From assembly GCA_011915565.1 (NCBI GenBank), contig GCA_011915565.1_3920.1: DNA of 64,000 bases; one strand, written 5' to 3'. Shown in pieces: positions 21,925 through 51,414 of this stretch (position 1 is its first letter; each line of letters starts with the position of its first letter). The translations under genes were made by a program, and so were the position numbers. The DNA comes from a phage. The notes beneath the pieces are model-generated. The model was not told where the DNA came from and did no database searches. It saw only the letters and a program-made list of their open reading frames with translations.

Positions 21925-21941
21925 TAAGTAATTTCTTAAAA

Positions 21942-21964
21942 GGCTGCTTCGGCGGCCTTTTTTA
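21942..21964 (+). terminator. intrinsic terminator
   Basis: GGCTGC-TTCG-GCGGCC hairpin plus T6. Confidence 0.7.
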
Positions 21965-21993
21965 TTTGTATTTTGTGCAGAGTGCTGTATAAT
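21965..21993 (+). promoter_or_regulatory. candidate promoter (TTTGTA-17-TATAAT)
   Basis: Consensus -10 TATAAT with weak -35, upstream of the 22025 ORF. Confidence 0.35.
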
Positions 21994-26359: not shown

Positions 26360-26390
26360 TAAACTCTGTAGAATATTCACAATAGATTAA

Positions 26391-26434
26391 GCCTTCCTTA
26401 TCTGGTAAATTTTTCAGGTAAGGAAGGCTTTTTT
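26391..26434 (+). terminator. intrinsic terminator
   Basis: 10-bp stem GCCTTCCTTA/TAAGGAAGGC followed by TTTTTT. Confidence 0.8.
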
Positions 26435-26627
26435 ATTTCAAGATTGTGCAGGTAGAGTTCTGTAGAGAAATCTGTAGAGAAAATTTTGAACTCCAAAGAG
26501 AAAATTCATTTTCAAACTGTGCAGGTAATCTCCAAAGAGCTTTTTCATTTTCAAAACGTGCAGACCCCGCTCAGGTCGGGCAAGAAAAATCATTTTAGAA
26601 TTGTGCAGGTAGGTGGATGCAGGTGGG
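26435..26627 (+). repeat. four direct repeats, consensus CATTTTCAAAnTGTGCAGGTA
   Basis: Copies near 26435, 26505, 26544, 26590; two also share CTCCAAAGAG upstream; lies between a terminator and the first early promoter. Confidence 0.6.
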
Positions 26628-26787
26628 GATGTCGCCATTTCTCACAAGGCTAACACATCTGGAAATAAAAGTCAACAGAAAAATTTGTAGCGGATTGAAA
26701 AATAATTCTTGATTGTAGTTCTGTTTTGTGGTAGTCGCGTGCGCCCGTTTCATTACAATTTTTGCAAAAATATTTTTAAAATTCCTA

Positions 26788-26816
26788 TTGACTCTTTGAG
26801 TATGGTTATCTAATAT
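26788..26816 (+). promoter_or_regulatory. sigma70-like promoter (TTGACT-17-TAATAT)
   Basis: Directly upstream of the first class-A hairpin leader. Confidence 0.55.
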
Positions 26817-26820
26817 TTGC

Positions 26821-26879
26821 ATCAACGGGGAGGGAATGACCTTCCCCACTAAGTAAAGTCCTAAACTGGAGATTCTAAA
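26821..26879 (+). promoter_or_regulatory. class-A leader element, copy 1
   Basis: ATCAACGGGGAGGGAATGACCTTCCCCACTAAgTAAAGTCCTAAACTGGAGATTCtAAA then ATG; GGGGAGG/CCTTCCCC hairpin plus RBS. Confidence 0.6.
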
Positions 26880-27260
26880 ATGGCATACCGTGCACCTAAA
26901 TTCATCAACAAAGACAACTTCCGCAACGCACTGGAGAAGTCACTTGATGAAAAATTTAACGGCAAATTGATTGTTGTTCACGCATTCAATTTTAAGTATG
27001 ATATTAACGGGAATAAAATCAACCATTACACGGCAACCATGTTAGATGGTACGCTATCAAGTGAAAAAGCCGTACTGAATGCACTTGCAGGACGTGGTAA
27101 AAACCTGATAAGCTGCAATAAGAGACGTTATCAAGGTGGCGCATATGGTTATGATGATGCTGTTTACCATCTTGAAAATATGGGCTATTCAGTGGAGAAA
27201 GCTGGAGCGTCTCAAATAATTGGTAGTGATGGTTATGTGACAATCTTCAAAATTAAATAA
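26880..27260 (+). CDS. early-array small protein 1
   Basis: 126 aa ORF after class-A leader. Confidence 0.6.
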   Translation: MAYRAPKFINKDNFRNALEKSLDEKFNGKLIVVHAFNFKYDINGNKINHYTATMLDGTLSSEKAVLNALAGRGKNLISCNKRRYQGGAYGYDDAVYHLENMGYSVEKAGASQIIGSDGYVTIFKIK

Positions 27261-28918: not shown

Positions 28919-29007
28919 CACTGATTTTTAGATAGATTAAATTACACATCAACGGGGAGGGAACAACCTTCCCACTAAATAAAGTCCTTAAACTAGGAGA
29001 TTCTAAA
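28914..29007 (+). promoter_or_regulatory. class-A element copy 2: promoter TTGACA-17-TAAATT plus hairpin leader
   Basis: TTGACACTGATTTTTAGATAGATTAAATTACACATCAACGGGGAGGGAACAACCTTCCCACTAAATAAAGTCCTTAAACTAGGAGATTCTAAA then ATG; near-identical to 29779-29870. Confidence 0.65.
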
Positions 29008-29280
29008 ATGTATACTACTAACAATGGCCTCACTTTGAACGTCACACTACGTCACTATGTAGATGGTGTCATGCACTTTGAAGATTTACAAGCTGAACAA
29101 CATATCTTAGATTGGCAAGTCGCAGGACTCCAAAAAACTGCTACGGGATACGGTAAAAAGATTCCAACTAGTTGGAAAGTTCACTATGAAGGACGTTTGC
29201 GCAGAATTTATCAAGATGTGCAAAGCAATAGCGCATCGAGTTACATTATAGTAAAAGGTGAAAAACTGCATTTAGTATAA
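29008..29280 (+). CDS. early-array small protein 6
   Basis: 90 aa. Confidence 0.55.
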   Translation: MYTTNNGLTLNVTLRHYVDGVMHFEDLQAEQHILDWQVAGLQKTATGYGKKIPTSWKVHYEGRLRRIYQDVQSNSASSYIIVKGEKLHLV

Positions 29281-29778: not shown

Positions 29779-29870
29779 TTGACACTGATTTTTAGATAGA
29801 CTAAATTACACATCAACGGGGAGGGAACAACCTTCCCACTAAATAAAGTCCTTAAACTAGGAGATTCAAA
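29779..29870 (+). promoter_or_regulatory. class-A element copy 3: promoter TTGACA-17-TAAATT plus hairpin leader
   Basis: About 90-nt near-exact duplicate of 28914-29007. Confidence 0.65.
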
Positions 29871-30413
29871 ATGAAATGCTTTCACGGTACTACTCAAGAA
29901 AACTTTATCAACCTGATTAATAACGGTGATAAACCATCAGGTGTATGGAATTGTTCGGATATGGACGGCAATTTTTACGTGTACCCAGAAAATAAACTCT
30001 ATGGTGATGATGAGGAAGAGATAGCATCGGAAGGTATCCAGCAAGCTCTAGGAAATGCCACTATCACGGCAGCTTTTCAGATGAAAACTCAAAATATTGT
30101 TATCTTAGAACTTGACATTCCAGAGGATGAGCTAAATGATGATTATTCTTGTGATAACATGTCAAATATAGCAAGCTTTACAGAGTACTTTGATGTAAAT
30201 TGGATTAAAAAGGTCTATACAACAGAGTTCAACGCTATGTATTCACCTTTTTGTCTCCCTTCACTGGATAATCCAAATTTGAATTATCTTGATGAAACAT
30301 TGGAGCTACTTGCTAAAAGTATCCAACAATCCGACAGTATTCAGGTTTTTTGTGACATCATGGATACACTGACAGAAAACATTGTAGAGAGTGATTTAAA
30401 GGTCTTTTTCTAA
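29871..30413 (+). CDS. early-array acidic protein 8
   Basis: 180 aa, strongly Asp/Glu-rich. Confidence 0.6.
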   Translation: MKCFHGTTQENFINLINNGDKPSGVWNCSDMDGNFYVYPENKLYGDDEEEIASEGIQQALGNATITAAFQMKTQNIVILELDIPEDELNDDYSCDNMSNIASFTEYFDVNWIKKVYTTEFNAMYSPFCLPSLDNPNLNYLDETLELLAKSIQQSDSIQVFCDIMDTLTENIVESDLKVFF

Positions 30414-30713: not shown

Positions 30714-30804
30714 ACAAGCCTGATAAAAGTCTGTAAATTACACATCAACGGGGAGGGAATGACCTTCCCCACTAAATAAAGTCCTTAAACTAGGAGATTC
30801 AAAA
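30711..30804 (+). promoter_or_regulatory. class-A element copy 4 (TAGACA-17-TAAATT plus hairpin leader)
   Basis: ...TAAATTACACATCAACGGGGAGGGAATGACCTTCCCCACTAAATAAAGTCCTTAAACTAGGAGATTCAAAA-ATG. Confidence 0.6.
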
Positions 30805-31146
30805 ATGGCTTATGTAACCGTAATTACCGATAAAGCTGGCTCATCTTGGTCAACTCAGGTTAGTGATAAGATGTCGCCTATGCAGTGCCTAAAATACTTT
30901 GAGCAGTGGAACAAAGGCGAGGATGTAAGCCCCTTTCAAGTGATGCAAATCATCCATACAGATAACGAAGGGAATAAAACGACCTTGAACAGTGAATACT
31001 ACGCAAGCCGTTTTGAAACGAGAAGTAAAACAATGAAGCTTTTACGTGAATCCGGCTATTCTCATATTGCCGCGCTAATCTGGGATGACCTGCTAAAAAG
31101 CCAGCGTATCAGCTATGTAAAACCTGAAAAAATATTCATCAGTTAA
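30805..31146 (+). CDS. early-array small protein 10
   Basis: 113 aa. Confidence 0.6.
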   Translation: MAYVTVITDKAGSSWSTQVSDKMSPMQCLKYFEQWNKGEDVSPFQVMQIIHTDNEGNKTTLNSEYYASRFETRSKTMKLLRESGYSHIAALIWDDLLKSQRISYVKPEKIFIS

Positions 31147-32580: not shown

Positions 32581-34235
32581 TTACGTCTATAAAGAGACTC
32601 TATACAGTCCCTTTCCTTTCCTTCCTAGAATCTATCCCACTAATTCGATAGAGACTATCTCATACCTTAAAAAGCAATAACTCTATAGTCTACTCTATAA
32701 CCTCTTATCAAATCAACTTAAATATAAGCCCATAACCCGAAAGGGAAGGGCAACCACTAAAACGCTCTATAAAGCTCTATAACAGCCTTATCAACCTAAC
32801 TTAAGCAATCATATTAACCCACTCTAAAAAGCCCTTTATAGAGCTTCCCAGAGCCTTAAAAGAATCTTATAAGGGTGTAAGCTTTATCATCTCGTTAGTA
32901 TTCTTGTGAATAACTAAAAAGGGATTGGTAGTTCCTTTAAAGTATGTTATAGGGGCTATAAAGTTACTCAAAAGTTACGTAAAAGAGGCTATAAAGTTAC
33001 GTGATAGATAGCTTAAAAGTTACGTAAATGCTAGCCCCCTTAACATTTTCTTAACAATTTCTTAACAATCCCTACATAGTTATGCTTTTAAGGCACTTGT
33101 TAGAGACTTGTTAGCCCTTGTTAAATCTCTGTTAAGACCACGTAAAAGCCTTGTAAGAGTCTTTGACATAGCCTTAAAAGCCTCTGTAAAGCCCTATAAA
33201 GAGCTATCCATACAGTTGAGGGGTAGATACTAGGAAGAGATTTAAAAGAGCTTATAAAGAGTTATAGAGAGCTTTTAAGAGGTATGTTTAAGAGTTCACT
33301 AAGAAAGGAAAGGGAATGATAAGAAAAGAGATAGTGACCATGCTAATAGCTTGTTAAAAAGATTAAACACTTGTTAGAAACTTGTTAATTATCTTAACAA
33401 AATAACTCTTTAAAATTAACTTGTTAACTCTTGTTAGTCATCTGTTAAGCCTCTGTAAAGTCTATGTATCAACTGTTAAGAAACTGTTACATCCCTGTTA
33501 GTTCTGTTAAGAATCTGTTAAGACCTCTGAAGAGATGTTAAGAGAATGTAGTAGCTGTTAAGAGATTGTTAAGGATATTTTAAAATTTTGCAAAGTACTT
33601 GTAAGGGAGCTGTTAAGGGCTACCAAGCAGATATACATCCTAATCAGATATTTTTGAGTTCCTTCAAAGACCCTAAAAAATGACTTGATAGTCCTATTTT
33701 ATAAAAATTTTAAAAATCTGAATAATTACCTAGACAGTCTTTTAAAAATACAGGTAGAAACAGGCTTATAAGATACCTTGTTAGTACCGTGTTAGACCTT
33801 GTGAGATAAGGTCTGTAAAGATATTCCTGTTAAGTTTGTTAAAACAGTCTATATAGAGGCTTAGTAGTGCCTAGTGAACACCTATAGAGGGTAACATAGC
33901 TGACATAGAGATTAAGGGGTGTATAGAGGCTTCTAAGAGCGTATAGAGAGATGGTTAAGGTGATTGTATAGGTTGTTAAGAAGGCTTGTTAGAAGAGTGT
34001 TTAGAGGGCTTATTAAAGGGCTAGTTAGAAGGGTTATACAGAGGGCTATTAAGACCACTAGATAGTTACTAAGATACTATATAGTACTATATAACTATAT
34101 AGAGAGTAAGATTAAGGAGGTTGTTAAGAAGGATAGATATTTTGTTCACATATGATGGTGACCCAGAGGTTGGGACAACCGATAAAATTTTATAAAAATT
34201 AAAAAGCCCCCGATTAAGGAGGCTCTTAAGATATT
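32581..34235. repeat. 1.65 kb ORF-free repeat-dense region between convergent gene blocks
   Basis: No 60-aa ORF in any frame; dozens of short motifs (CTGTTAAG, CTTGTTAG, YTATAAAG, TATAGAG); in 33420-33620 the TGTTA cores recur at about 10-bp multiples. Confidence 0.7.
34196..34226 (-). terminator. candidate intrinsic terminator (minus strand)
   Basis: Reverse complement gives AGCCTCC-TTAATC-GGGGGCT followed by TTTTT, just downstream of the 34236 gene end. Confidence 0.45.
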
Positions 34236-34829
34236 TTAAATCAGTGTTTCCAGAACTGTTTTAAGGGATGACTTAGTTGTCTGATAAAAATGAATGAATC
34301 CGTTGTTGTTATCGAATATCTGCATCATGATATCATCTCCCTTGATTGGGTATACTCGGATATCATAGTGAAAACCATTAAAGACACAAGACCCATTACA
34401 GAATGCGCTAAAGTCATCCACTGAGATATACTCTTCATGTCCTGTGATTTTTATACAAACACCTTTACTCGGTCTCTTAGGGTTGATATCTTCCATCACA
34501 GACATACTCTGTCCACCAAGAGATACCATAGTGACCACTTTACGGTTCTTCTGTCTAAAGTACATCTTAACTTTCTGCAAAGTGTCTTCATAGAACGGAT
34601 AAGACCTAGCTACAAAGATTCCTTCAAGTGGCTCTTTACCATTTTCAACTTCTCTGGTATGTCGTACTGCAAAGATAATTTGTTGGAACCAGTCAAGATT
34701 TTCTTCGGAGAGTGCTTCTCGAACATCACTCCAGTCAAGGACTAAGTAGTTACCTTCAACTTCTTTTAAGTTATCTTTTTCCATATCTATCACACCATTA
34801 TCGTAAAACTTGGTAAGCTGGTACTGCAA
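34236..34829 (-). CDS. hypothetical protein
   Basis: 197 aa; start may be the internal Met at about 34784 given overlap with the upstream gene. Confidence 0.6.
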   Translation of the reverse strand: MQYQLTKFYDNGVIDMEKDNLKEVEGNYLVLDWSDVREALSEENLDWFQQIIFAVRHTREVENGKEPLEGIFVARSYPFYEDTLQKVKMYFRQKNRKVVTMVSLGGQSMSVMEDINPKRPSKGVCIKITGHEEYISVDDFSAFCNGSCVFNGFHYDIRVYPIKGDDIMMQIFDNNNGFIHFYQTTKSSLKTVLETLI

Positions 34830-49812: not shown

Positions 49813-51414
49813 ATGGACTTAAATGCTGTTAAGCAGAAGCGAGTGGAAGATGTTAGGAAAGTCCTAGCTGGAGAGTTGGGGCTTTCTGATGAAGTAAAAG
49901 AAATTATCAAATCATTCGGTAAAGACCCCTCTAAATTCCTTCCAACTCAAATTCTGACTTTATTAAGATACACACCAGACCAAGTTCGCCTTATCTTTAA
50001 ATTGATGACTGATAAGAACTATGTAGCCCCTCAGCCGGGTTCTCAAGAGGTCTTTTTAAATACTAATGCTGACTTGGTTCTCTATGGTGGTGCTGCTGGT
50101 GCTGGTAAGACTGCCGCATTGTTAATGGACTCTTTAAGATTTATTGAAGACCCTAACTATAATGCTGTATATTTCCGTCGAAATACAACACAGTTACAAG
50201 GTGGTTTATGGCCTGCCGCAAAGAAACTATTTGGTAAGTTTGGTGGGATTCCTCACGAGCAGAAAATGACTATCACATTCCCTTCTGGGGCAACTATCAA
50301 GTTTACCTACCTAGAACTTGAAAAGCACGCTGAAGGTCATCAGGGTATTGAATACTCAGCTATTTACTTTGACGAAGGTACGCACTTCTCTGCTTCACAG
50401 ATTTCATACCTACAAACCCGTCTACGTTCTGGTGCTGAAGGTGATTCATACATGAAGATTTCCATGAACCCAGACAGAGACCACTTTATTTACGATTGGG
50501 TAGAACCATTCTTAGATGAAGAAGGTTATCCAGACCCTGAAAAGTGTGGTCGTATTCGTTGGTATGTAATGAACGATGGTGTGATGGTTTCTGATTGGGA
50601 GAGAGACAAGATTCTTGAAATGTTCCCTCTTGAGATTCCTCAAACATACACCTTTATCTCTGGTACGATTGATGATAACCCAATCCTTGACTTCTTAGAG
50701 CCTAAGTACCGTGGTAAGTTGGAAAACAACACCCCTGTAAACGTTGCAAGACTTCGTTTCGGTAACTGGAAGGCTCGTGCAGAAGGTTCAAACTATTGGC
50801 AAAGACAATGGTGTGAAATTGTTGATTCACTACCAGAAGATGTATTTGATGTTAGAGCATGGGACTTAGCAGCAACTTTACCATCGGAGATTAACCCTAA
50901 TCCAGACTGGACAGCAGGTGTTAAGATGGGTAAATCTAAAAAAGACGGTTGCTATTATATCATTGATGTAGTAAGATTTAGAGATAGACCCTCTGGAGTC
51001 GAAACACAAATTAATTTGACTGCTGAAAGTGACGGTAAGCGAACTGGTATTTTTATCCCTCAAGACCCAGGCGCTGCTGGTAAATCCTACGCAACATCCC
51101 TCATCAGGAAACTTGCCGAGAAAGGTTATCGAGCAAGAGCCAAACCAACAAATAAAGATAAAGTTACCCGCTTTGCGGGATTTTCTGCTGCTTCTGAAGC
51201 TGGACTTGTAAAAGTCTTGAGAGGTAGTTGGAATGAAGCTTACTTTCAAGAGCTTGAAGGCTTTTGTGGCGATGGTAAAACTAAAGATGACCAAGTGGAT
51301 GCTACCAGTGATGCTTTCAACAGTCTTAACGAAGTTAAATTATTCAAGCCACCATCAATGGGTGCTCACACAGATTTAGTGAGAGGAAACCCATATGAGG
51401 GGCTTAGACGTTGA
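49813..51414 (+). CDS. terminase large subunit
   Basis: Walker A LYGGAAGAGKT; track start 49798 is TTG, ATG at 49813 with GGAGGTG RBS chosen. Confidence 0.85.
   Translation: MDLNAVKQKRVEDVRKVLAGELGLSDEVKEIIKSFGKDPSKFLPTQILTLLRYTPDQVRLIFKLMTDKNYVAPQPGSQEVFLNTNADLVLYGGAAGAGKTAALLMDSLRFIEDPNYNAVYFRRNTTQLQGGLWPAAKKLFGKFGGIPHEQKMTITFPSGATIKFTYLELEKHAEGHQGIEYSAIYFDEGTHFSASQISYLQTRLRSGAEGDSYMKISMNPDRDHFIYDWVEPFLDEEGYPDPEKCGRIRWYVMNDGVMVSDWERDKILEMFPLEIPQTYTFISGTIDDNPILDFLEPKYRGKLENNTPVNVARLRFGNWKARAEGSNYWQRQWCEIVDSLPEDVFDVRAWDLAATLPSEINPNPDWTAGVKMGKSKKDGCYYIIDVVRFRDRPSGVETQINLTAESDGKRTGIFIPQDPGAAGKSYATSLIRKLAEKGYRARAKPTNKDKVTRFAGFSAASEAGLVKVLRGSWNEAYFQELEGFCGDGKTKDDQVDATSDAFNSLNEVKLFKPPSMGAHTDLVRGNPYEGLRR

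Follow-up and report, generated by a model that had tools for sequence, protein, structure and literature searches.

Organization of the locus

The stretch of DNA analyzed (64,000 nucleotides, referred to as the window) belongs to a Felixounavirus genome of about 87 kb. The region under study matches the genomes of 227 Felix-O1-like phages, and its closest relative is Escherichia phage vB_EcoM-Ro111lw (97.6% identity over 1.3 kb and 99.2% over the 360 nt past the terminator, 26431-26790). In annotated relatives, rIIA and rIIB are followed on the plus strand by a small operon and a terminator, after which come a gap of about 520 bp devoid of credible genes and a run of small genes. The operon comprises a gene without assigned function, several small genes, and the genes for polynucleotide kinase (PNK), spanins, and a macro-domain phosphatase. 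The original prediction had placed a group of direct repeats between a strong terminator and the first promoter of the early genes. The scan recovered both the terminator and the TTGACT-N17-TAATAT promoter, and the repeat array lies between the end of the rIIB-to-phosphatase operon and this promoter (Table 1). The first gene of the early block occupies positions 26880-27260, and at least four of its small genes carry a common promoter/leader unit. These units, of about 50-75 nt with a G/C hairpin (CAACGGGGAGGGAATGACCTTCCCC), are located at 26821-26871, 28938-29008, 29802-29871, and 30733-30809, and correspond to the long direct repeats reported for Felix O1 (Whichard et al., 2010).

The deposited sequence of phage D4 includes both terminal repeats, a segment of 581 bp that is identical at its start and end and maps to positions 33034-33614 of the window. 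Terminal repeats of 608 bp have been determined experimentally for UAB_Phi87 (PMC4837284). Given the location of the terminal repeat, the right physical end is about 7.1 kb away from the array (about 8% of the genome). Assignment of the array as a genome terminus or packaging site was ruled out, the terminal repeat being located 6.4 kb downstream. The genome-end region (32650-34300, about 1.6 kb) is gene-poor and contains dozens of short repeats in both orientations (TGTTAA/CTTGTTA, CTTAAAAG, and CTATAAAG). In an uncultured relative (contig L032), a TTAACA-rich stretch is present immediately past the repeat array. The record of phage Andreotti (MN850610) starts in the gap, about 35 nt past the last aligned base of the array (window 26614), and has a 'repeat_region' of 22 nt at the other extremity; rather than a physical end, this start probably reflects a break of the assembly within the repeats.

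Table 1. Features of the repeat array, its flanks, and the solitary copy (window coordinates).
Feature	Position	Strand	Description
Solitary copy, CTTTTTTATTTGTATTTTGTGCAGAGT	21957-21983	+	Directly 3' of the rIIB terminator (21938-21961)
Conserved TGTATAAT of the putative promoter	21986-21993	+	Perfect -10 TATAAT at 21988-21993; starts 13 bp past the G of GTGCA, 6 bp after the solitary copy
Intrinsic terminator closing the operon downstream from rIIB	26389-26436	+	26389-26430 plus T-run; stem of 17 pairs, then TTTTATTTCA; also a terminator in the annotation of AYO145A
Copy 1, GCTTTTTTATTTCAAGATTGTGCAGGTA	26427-26454	+	GCTTTTT TATTTC AAGATT GTGCA GGTA; homologous copy in all five lineages
Spacer with local duplication (CTGTAGAGAAAT, twice)	26459-26482	+	From alignment; not conserved in Mooglevirus
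Copy 2, GAAAATTCATTTTCAAACTGTGCAGGTA	26500-26527	+	GAAAATT CATTTT CAAACT GTGCA GGTA
Copy 3, GCTTTTTCATTTTCAAAACGTGCAGACC	26539-26566	+	GCTTTTT CATTTT CAAAAC GTGCA GACC; 3' end unlike other copies
Copy 4, GAAAAATCATTTTAGAATTGTGCAGGTA	26584-26611	+	GAAAAAT CATTTT AGAATT GTGCA GGTA; without Kolesnikvirus counterpart
Lineage-specific tail, GGATGCAGGTGGGG	26615-26628	+	Unrelated sequence instead in FO1a, Suspvirus, and Mooglevirus
Second conserved non-coding block	26660-26787	+	79% pairwise identity within Felixounavirus/Suspvirus/Mooglevirus; A+T-richer toward the promoter
First sigma-70-type promoter of the terminal early genes	26788-26816	+	TTGACT-N17-TAATAT, from scan; TTGAC and TA..T kept in all lineages

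Anatomy and distribution of the repeats

The array consists of four copies on the same strand within positions 26427-26611. The full unit of about 28 bp comprises a G, five A/T, YATTTY, six unspecified bases, GTGCA, and GGTA. The presence of four direct repeats with a conserved core, as originally described, was confirmed, but the core given, TGTGCAGGTA, is exact in copies 1, 2, and 4 only and reads CGTGCAGACC in copy 3. The spacing, described as 40-70 bp, is 73, 39, and 45 bp from start to start. The left half of copy 1 (TATTTCAAGA) overlaps the terminator, whose T-run doubles as the A/T tract of this copy. The duplicated spacer between copies 1 and 2 coincides with the site of an extra copy in Kolesnikvirus phages (37 + 37 = 74 bp). 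The variant stretch GGATGCAGGTGGGG is indeed present after the last repeat, although it is not conserved in relatives and is not part of the conserved element. This tail contains GCAGGTGG (26620-26627), one base off the E. coli Chi site GCTGGTGG; since this octamer is not kept in relatives, the likeness is probably due to chance.

The core pattern YATTTY-N6-GTGCA (YATTTYNNNNNNGTGCA) has four matches in the 64 kb of the window when both strands are searched, all on the plus strand at 26434-26607. Shuffled sequences gave an expectation of 0.38 ± 0.63 matches, and none of 100 shuffles reached four. For the 21-mer with up to three mismatches, the expectation was 0.00. A chance origin of the repeats is therefore excluded. 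In a search of a whole genome for further copies, as proposed in the original prediction, the complete genome of Ro111lw (86,950 bp) was found to contain five copies, the four of the array and one located behind rIIB.

Scanning IMG/VR for the tandem pattern returned 33 loci. Thirty of these are contigs of this phage group, mostly of 84-94 kb with some shorter fragments; loci L041, L042, and L045 were rejected as relatives of the motif because their repeats are unrelated. The same scan applied to 185,579 bacterial and archaeal species (one genome each) returned 63 loci, all with unrelated repeats; no related tandem array beside any gene and no toxin-antitoxin context were found. Nothing similar was detected in plasmids or in 5,426 complete E. 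coli genomes. We found no published account of these repeats, of an Ounavirinae origin of replication, or of an infection transcriptome. The genome paper of Felix O1 lists direct repeats of at least 24 bp, and those of the array are not among them (Whichard et al., 2010).

Conservation of the array across phage lineages

An array in the same orientation is present 3' of the macro-domain gene and before the early promoter in Felixounavirus, Suspvirus, Mooglevirus, and Kolesnikvirus and in L032, an 88-kb contig from an uncultured phage. The DNA of the latter is without match to any GenBank phage, and its macro-domain protein is 37% identical to that of the window. The spacing is 73-77, 39-41, and 45 bp in Felixounavirus, Suspvirus, and Mooglevirus, and the sequence of the spacers drifts. 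The Kolesnikvirus phages of Erwinia harbor four copies at 37, 37, and 39 bp with the variant GTGCATAGG. The L032 array contains four copies matching the core pattern, one with GTGGA in place of GTGCA, and one additional, more degenerate copy; its unit has the form AAATTCATTTTAA-N4-GTGCATAGG. Natural variants with three copies occur, and the long 75-bp gap is retained. Alignment of the genera suggests that there were five ancestral positions, of which A, C, D, and E would have been retained in Felixounavirus and A, B, C, and D in Kolesnikvirus.

Within the gap, conservation is highest in the repeat cores. Their pairwise identity is 85% within Felixounavirus, Suspvirus, and Mooglevirus (phages of E. 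coli, Salmonella, Shigella, and Citrobacter) and 63% in comparisons with Kolesnikvirus, versus 72% and 36%, respectively, for the spacers. The variation at the 3' end (GTGCAGGTA versus GTGCATAGG) tracks the phage lineage and not the host, as illustrated by SB18, a Kolesnikvirus that infects Salmonella and has the variant of the Erwinia phages. The array is among the most strongly conserved non-coding features of the subfamily, and we propose that it is an old, subfamily-wide cis-acting element.

Position-specific counts resolved the unit into a conserved G, five A/T, T-CATTT-Y, a loose MAA-NN-Y, an invariant GTGCA, and a lineage-specific tail. For the five-base tract, copies 1 and 3 have T5, and copies 2 and 4 have A4T or A5. 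Runs of A and of T have an equivalent minor-groove shape in duplex DNA and are not equivalent in RNA. Judged by its conserved cores, its variable spacers, and the occurrence of A/T tracts of either polarity, the motif behaves as a double-stranded DNA element.

A fifth copy overlaps a putative promoter behind rIIB

The solitary copy spans roughly positions -43 to -19, i.e. the -35 element and spacer, of a promoter with a perfect -10 (Table 1). The -35 element is poor in this phage (TTGTAT, 3/6), which explains why the promoter was missed by the consensus scan. A better -35 is present in Mooglevirus-like loci (TTGAAA-N16-TATAAT). Of the 32 other Ounavirinae loci scanned, 20 show the same arrangement, which precedes the array by about 4.2-4.9 kb except in one locus, L050 (6.6 kb). 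A single additional relaxed match per genome is close to what chance would give. The argument for the fifth copy lies in its pattern of conservation: in Felixounavirus, in Mooglevirus-like loci, and in L050, TTTTTTATTTG, TGTGCAG, and TGTATAATT are invariant and the bases between them vary. This selective conservation of TGTGCAG inside a promoter spacer points to a regulator site, for which it would be expected. The promoter containing TGTATAAT is presumed to be a likely regulated promoter of the PNK-spanin-phosphatase operon, which is closed by the 26389 terminator. No solitary copy was detected in the loci of Kolesnikvirus or L032. The array therefore looks older than the solitary copy, and its ancestral role need not be transcriptional.

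A candidate binding-site array for a regulator

The reading that we favor, with a probability of roughly 0.5, is that the repeats are a phased array of binding sites for one putative sequence-specific DNA-binding protein, acting as an operator bank or as a boundary. All four sites, of about 28 bp and in the same orientation, would be recognized by this protein in the form of a G, a five-base A- or T-tract, YATTTY, six loose bases, GTGCA, and two to four lineage-specific bases. The pocket containing the array is expected to be transcription-free, with a strong terminator upstream and a downstream promoter that fires away from it, so that a stable multi-protein complex could form there. Since, in the Felixounavirus and Mooglevirus lineages, the promoter behind rIIB carries the same site on its -35 element and spacer, the binder is most likely a transcription regulator. 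At the solitary site, this regulator would control the PNK-spanin-phosphatase operon. At the other end of the operon, at the head of the terminal early block, the array would provide a cooperative, high-avidity operator bank or a boundary at which the regulator is held or nucleated. The analyses show that the motif exists, is unique and conserved, has the character of a DNA-level element, and overlaps a promoter; binding by a protein, the identity and origin of that protein, and the direction of regulation are inferred.

The original prediction of sites for a regulator is the option that best fits these observations, but its assignment to the control of the early genes specifically was not borne out. 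The nearest early promoter is located 177 bp past the last copy, and about a dozen other early promoters are devoid of a copy. Direct promoter control by the array is not evident at a distance of at least 177 bp from copies that lack a -10 element.

No DNA-binding domain was detected with Pfam in 18 neighboring proteins, and none was found in the flanking operon or the first eight early genes. One regulator is annotated, a 99-residue XRE-type HTH protein, which is essential in phage Bas63 according to the PhageMaP data available to us. It was not detectable in array-bearing Kolesnikvirus phages (E ≤ 1e-5) and was rejected as a universal binder on the basis of this absence at the sensitivity used. 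Sites for CRP, IHF, Fis, sigma-54, sigma-E, sigma-32, and LexA and the marbox did not fit in a by-eye comparison with consensus sequences. The tracking of phage lineage by the 3' variant mildly favors a phage-encoded binder, and the depth of conservation mildly favors a host protein. On the basis of the 3' variant, the binder appears more likely to be encoded by the phage than by the host.

Insertion data are available for the equivalent locus of Bas63 (MZ501086), in which a minus-strand ORF, bas63_0096, covers copies 1 to 4. In PhageMaP, barcodes were inserted at Cas9 cut sites in every annotated gene. In the portion of these data available to us, which covers gene 96 (the array) and not gene 97 (the downstream half of the gap), bas63_0096 scored +0.25 to +0.93, in the non-essential range (about -1.3 for DNA polymerase), and barcode insertions in the array had no fitness cost in four laboratory strains. 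Genes 96 to 98 are not mentioned in the main text of the PhageMaP report. Thus, the array is dispensable, or tolerant of interruption, in laboratory strains, and any role would be accessory or redundant under those conditions.

Alternative functions

An iteron-type origin of replication, primary or accessory, is possible but unlikely. A phage initiator, possibly together with host DnaA, would bind the repeats, bend the DNA via the A/T tracts, and open the A+T-rich stretch by the early promoter. Compatible with this function are the number and size of the repeats (four, asymmetric, and as long as iterons), their common orientation and conserved spacing, and their confinement to a single non-coding locus shielded from transcription. 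The flank at 26700-26850 has a G+C content of 31-33% versus about 39% genome-wide, a modest difference in a segment that overlaps the upstream region of the promoter. The Kolesnikvirus and L032 variants end in GTGCATAG, whose reverse complement, CTATGCACA, agrees with the DnaA box TTWTNCACA at eight of nine positions; GTGGATAG is present in a single L032 copy. Replication initiators often also bind single sites in promoters, to which the fifth copy would be a parallel. Against an origin, the annotations of Ro111lw, D4, and Bas63 list no Rep- or initiator-like gene, none was detected among the 18 neighboring proteins, and the gap of this phage contains no consensus DnaA box. The cumulative GC skew shows no inflection at 26.5 kb, and to the right of the array the skew decreases instead of increasing. 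Interruptions of the Bas63 array are tolerated, these being insertions and not deletions in a phage that may have several origins. In addition, the divergent gap between the DNA polymerase and primase genes, with A+T-rich palindromic repeats of its own, is a more classical candidate, and looks like a better origin candidate than the array. This gap, which lies outside the window (50069-50306 in Ro111lw), is A+T-rich and contains an imperfect palindrome of 27 nt as well as three copies of GTTACTTAAAAG. Whichard et al. also located the onset of early transcription there.

By analogy with other systems, the repeats could form a cluster of DnaA-box-like sites for a host factor that bounds the genome end entering first, as in the iss region of T5, or a datA-like sink that titrates a host protein; we consider this improbable. 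The array borders, at about 8% of the genome from the right end, a terminal block of small genes, several of which have a common promoter/leader unit. In T5, the 7.9% of the DNA transferred in the first step is bounded by an untranslated repeat region that is better conserved than genes (10.1101/866236), and conserved untranslated repeats at the inner border of a terminal early region were also found here. The T5 direct repeat D (TGTGCAAATCCGACA, nine copies) has TGTGCA in common with the motif, but this likeness extends over six bases only and is, by our own estimate, an event of about 10% probability by chance. Repeat D is located in the injection-stop region (AY587007, 9672-10409), and its reverse complement, ATTTGCACA, matches eight of the nine positions of the DnaA box; it is not among the DnaA boxes listed in the Davison preprint. 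Conservation of the array down to the lineage with 37% protein identity favors a very conserved reader, such as a host protein, and the variant that is presumably ancestral, that of Kolesnikvirus and L032, matches the DnaA box at eight positions. However, the variant of E. coli and Salmonella phages, TGTGCAGGT, matches at six positions only, as does ACCTGCACA in the window. Inverted repeats and palindromes of the T5 type are missing, those of the array region being the terminator and short chance pairs, and the literature searched contains no report of two-step DNA transfer for Felix O1. The more specific proposal that the four sites are a dedicated boundary signal at about 8% from the presumed first-entering end, ancestrally DnaA-box-like, which would arrest or anchor the incoming DNA or insulate the terminal host-takeover block, is given a slight chance only. 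If correct, two-step or staged genome delivery would extend beyond the T5 group.

The original prediction also considered non-canonical promoters read by a phage-modified RNA polymerase. The position of the solitary copy just upstream from a perfect -10 and the resemblance of motif positions 4-10 to a -35 hexamer (TTCAAA, TTGAAA) are in keeping with this proposal, which is nonetheless very unlikely. The four copies of the array have no common -10-like hexamer at any fixed distance, the sequences past GTGCA all differ, and a scan of both strands of 26431-26787 revealed no promoter-like site. The five copies present in the 86,950 bp of Ro111lw are not dispersed before genes, the motif being upstream of no gene other than that behind rIIB.

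An RNA-level element, in which the tandem units of 37-45 nt would act as a mimic of a type III antitoxin (pseudo-ToxI), a protein sponge, or another non-coding RNA, has equally little to recommend it. ToxI-type arrays are made of 36-nt units, which the head-to-tail units of the phage array resemble, and the period is near-regular in Kolesnikvirus (37/37/39 nt). Arguing against this function, a strong terminator is located just upstream, the array has no promoter of its own, and an exchange of A5 for T5 from one copy to another would not be neutral at the RNA level. For 12 diverse sequences, the consensus fold had energies of -0.77 and 0.00 kcal/mol on the two strands (z = -0.75 and +0.20 relative to column shuffles), and single-sequence folds were no better than shuffles (z = +0.46 and +0.58), indicating that there is no stable or conserved fold. 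A search of Rfam, ToxI included, gave no match, and no related array was present in the 185,579 bacterial genomes, in plasmids, or in E. coli genomes.

Finally, small protein-coding genes are annotated over the array in several records, as ORFs of 50-66 codons on both strands (window 26438-26638 on the minus strand and its equivalents in relatives, for example Ro111lw_00140, bas63_0096/0097, FO1a gp14, and three D4 ORFs), but these are almost certainly over-calls since their strand, frame, and extent vary among close relatives, the frames would be disrupted by the 2- and 4-bp indels that separate lineages, conservation follows the period of the repeat and not that of codons, and disruption of bas63_0096 has no phenotype.

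Significance of the array

Felix O1 and its relatives are widely used in Salmonella typing, biocontrol, and therapy. The timing of transcription and the start sites of replication have not been established for Felix O1 (Whichard et al., 2010). The array was hitherto undescribed and is routinely mis-annotated as small hypothetical genes. Finding the protein that reads it would provide a first handle on regulation, replication, or genome entry in this group, and would tidy the annotation of several hundred genomes. Since insertions are tolerated, the array may be a safe landing site for engineering or, should the element prove important in natural hosts, one better left untouched.

Comparison with known systems

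Like the iterons of lambda ori, P1 oriR, F, R6K, and pSC101, the array groups several asymmetric direct repeats of about 20-28 bp at a single non-coding locus; they share one orientation, their spacing is conserved, and A/T tracts lie next to them. Iterons are usually spaced by 21-24 bp, and extra single sites in promoters are known in these systems. In contrast, the spacing is wider here (37-77 bp), there is no cognate initiator, marked unwinding element, or GC-skew signal, and insertions are tolerated.

DnaA-box clusters such as oriC and datA likewise combine an array with a single site embedded in a promoter, and the Kolesnikvirus and L032 cores match the DnaA box at eight of nine positions. 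However, the variant of the window matches at six, the motif of about 28 bp is three times longer than a DnaA box, and its best-conserved half, TCATTTT, lies outside the box. In the injection-stop region of T5 (Repeat Region 3, in the left terminal repeat), conserved untranslated repeats, including direct repeats containing TGTGCA, also bound terminal small early genes at about 8% from the end. The T5 region extends over 1.2 kb, with many palindromes, inverted repeats, and paired DnaA boxes inside a terminal repeat of 10 kb, whereas the array extends over 0.2 kb, consists of direct repeats only, and is located outside a terminal repeat of 0.6 kb in a group for which two-step transfer is not known.

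The head-to-tail units of 37-45 nt recall ToxI and phage pseudo-ToxI arrays, but the units are not identical here, no transcription or fold is predicted, and no toxin partner was found. Sites that replace or overlap the -35 element are exemplified by the MotA boxes of T4, which sit at middle promoters; the solitary copy is similarly located, on a promoter whose -10 is perfect and whose -35 is poor. In contrast to the MotA system, only one promoter carries the site, the sequence is unrelated to the MotA box, and the four further copies are promoterless. The array is thus a well-conserved addition to a familiar type of element, the direct-repeat candidate protein-binding array.
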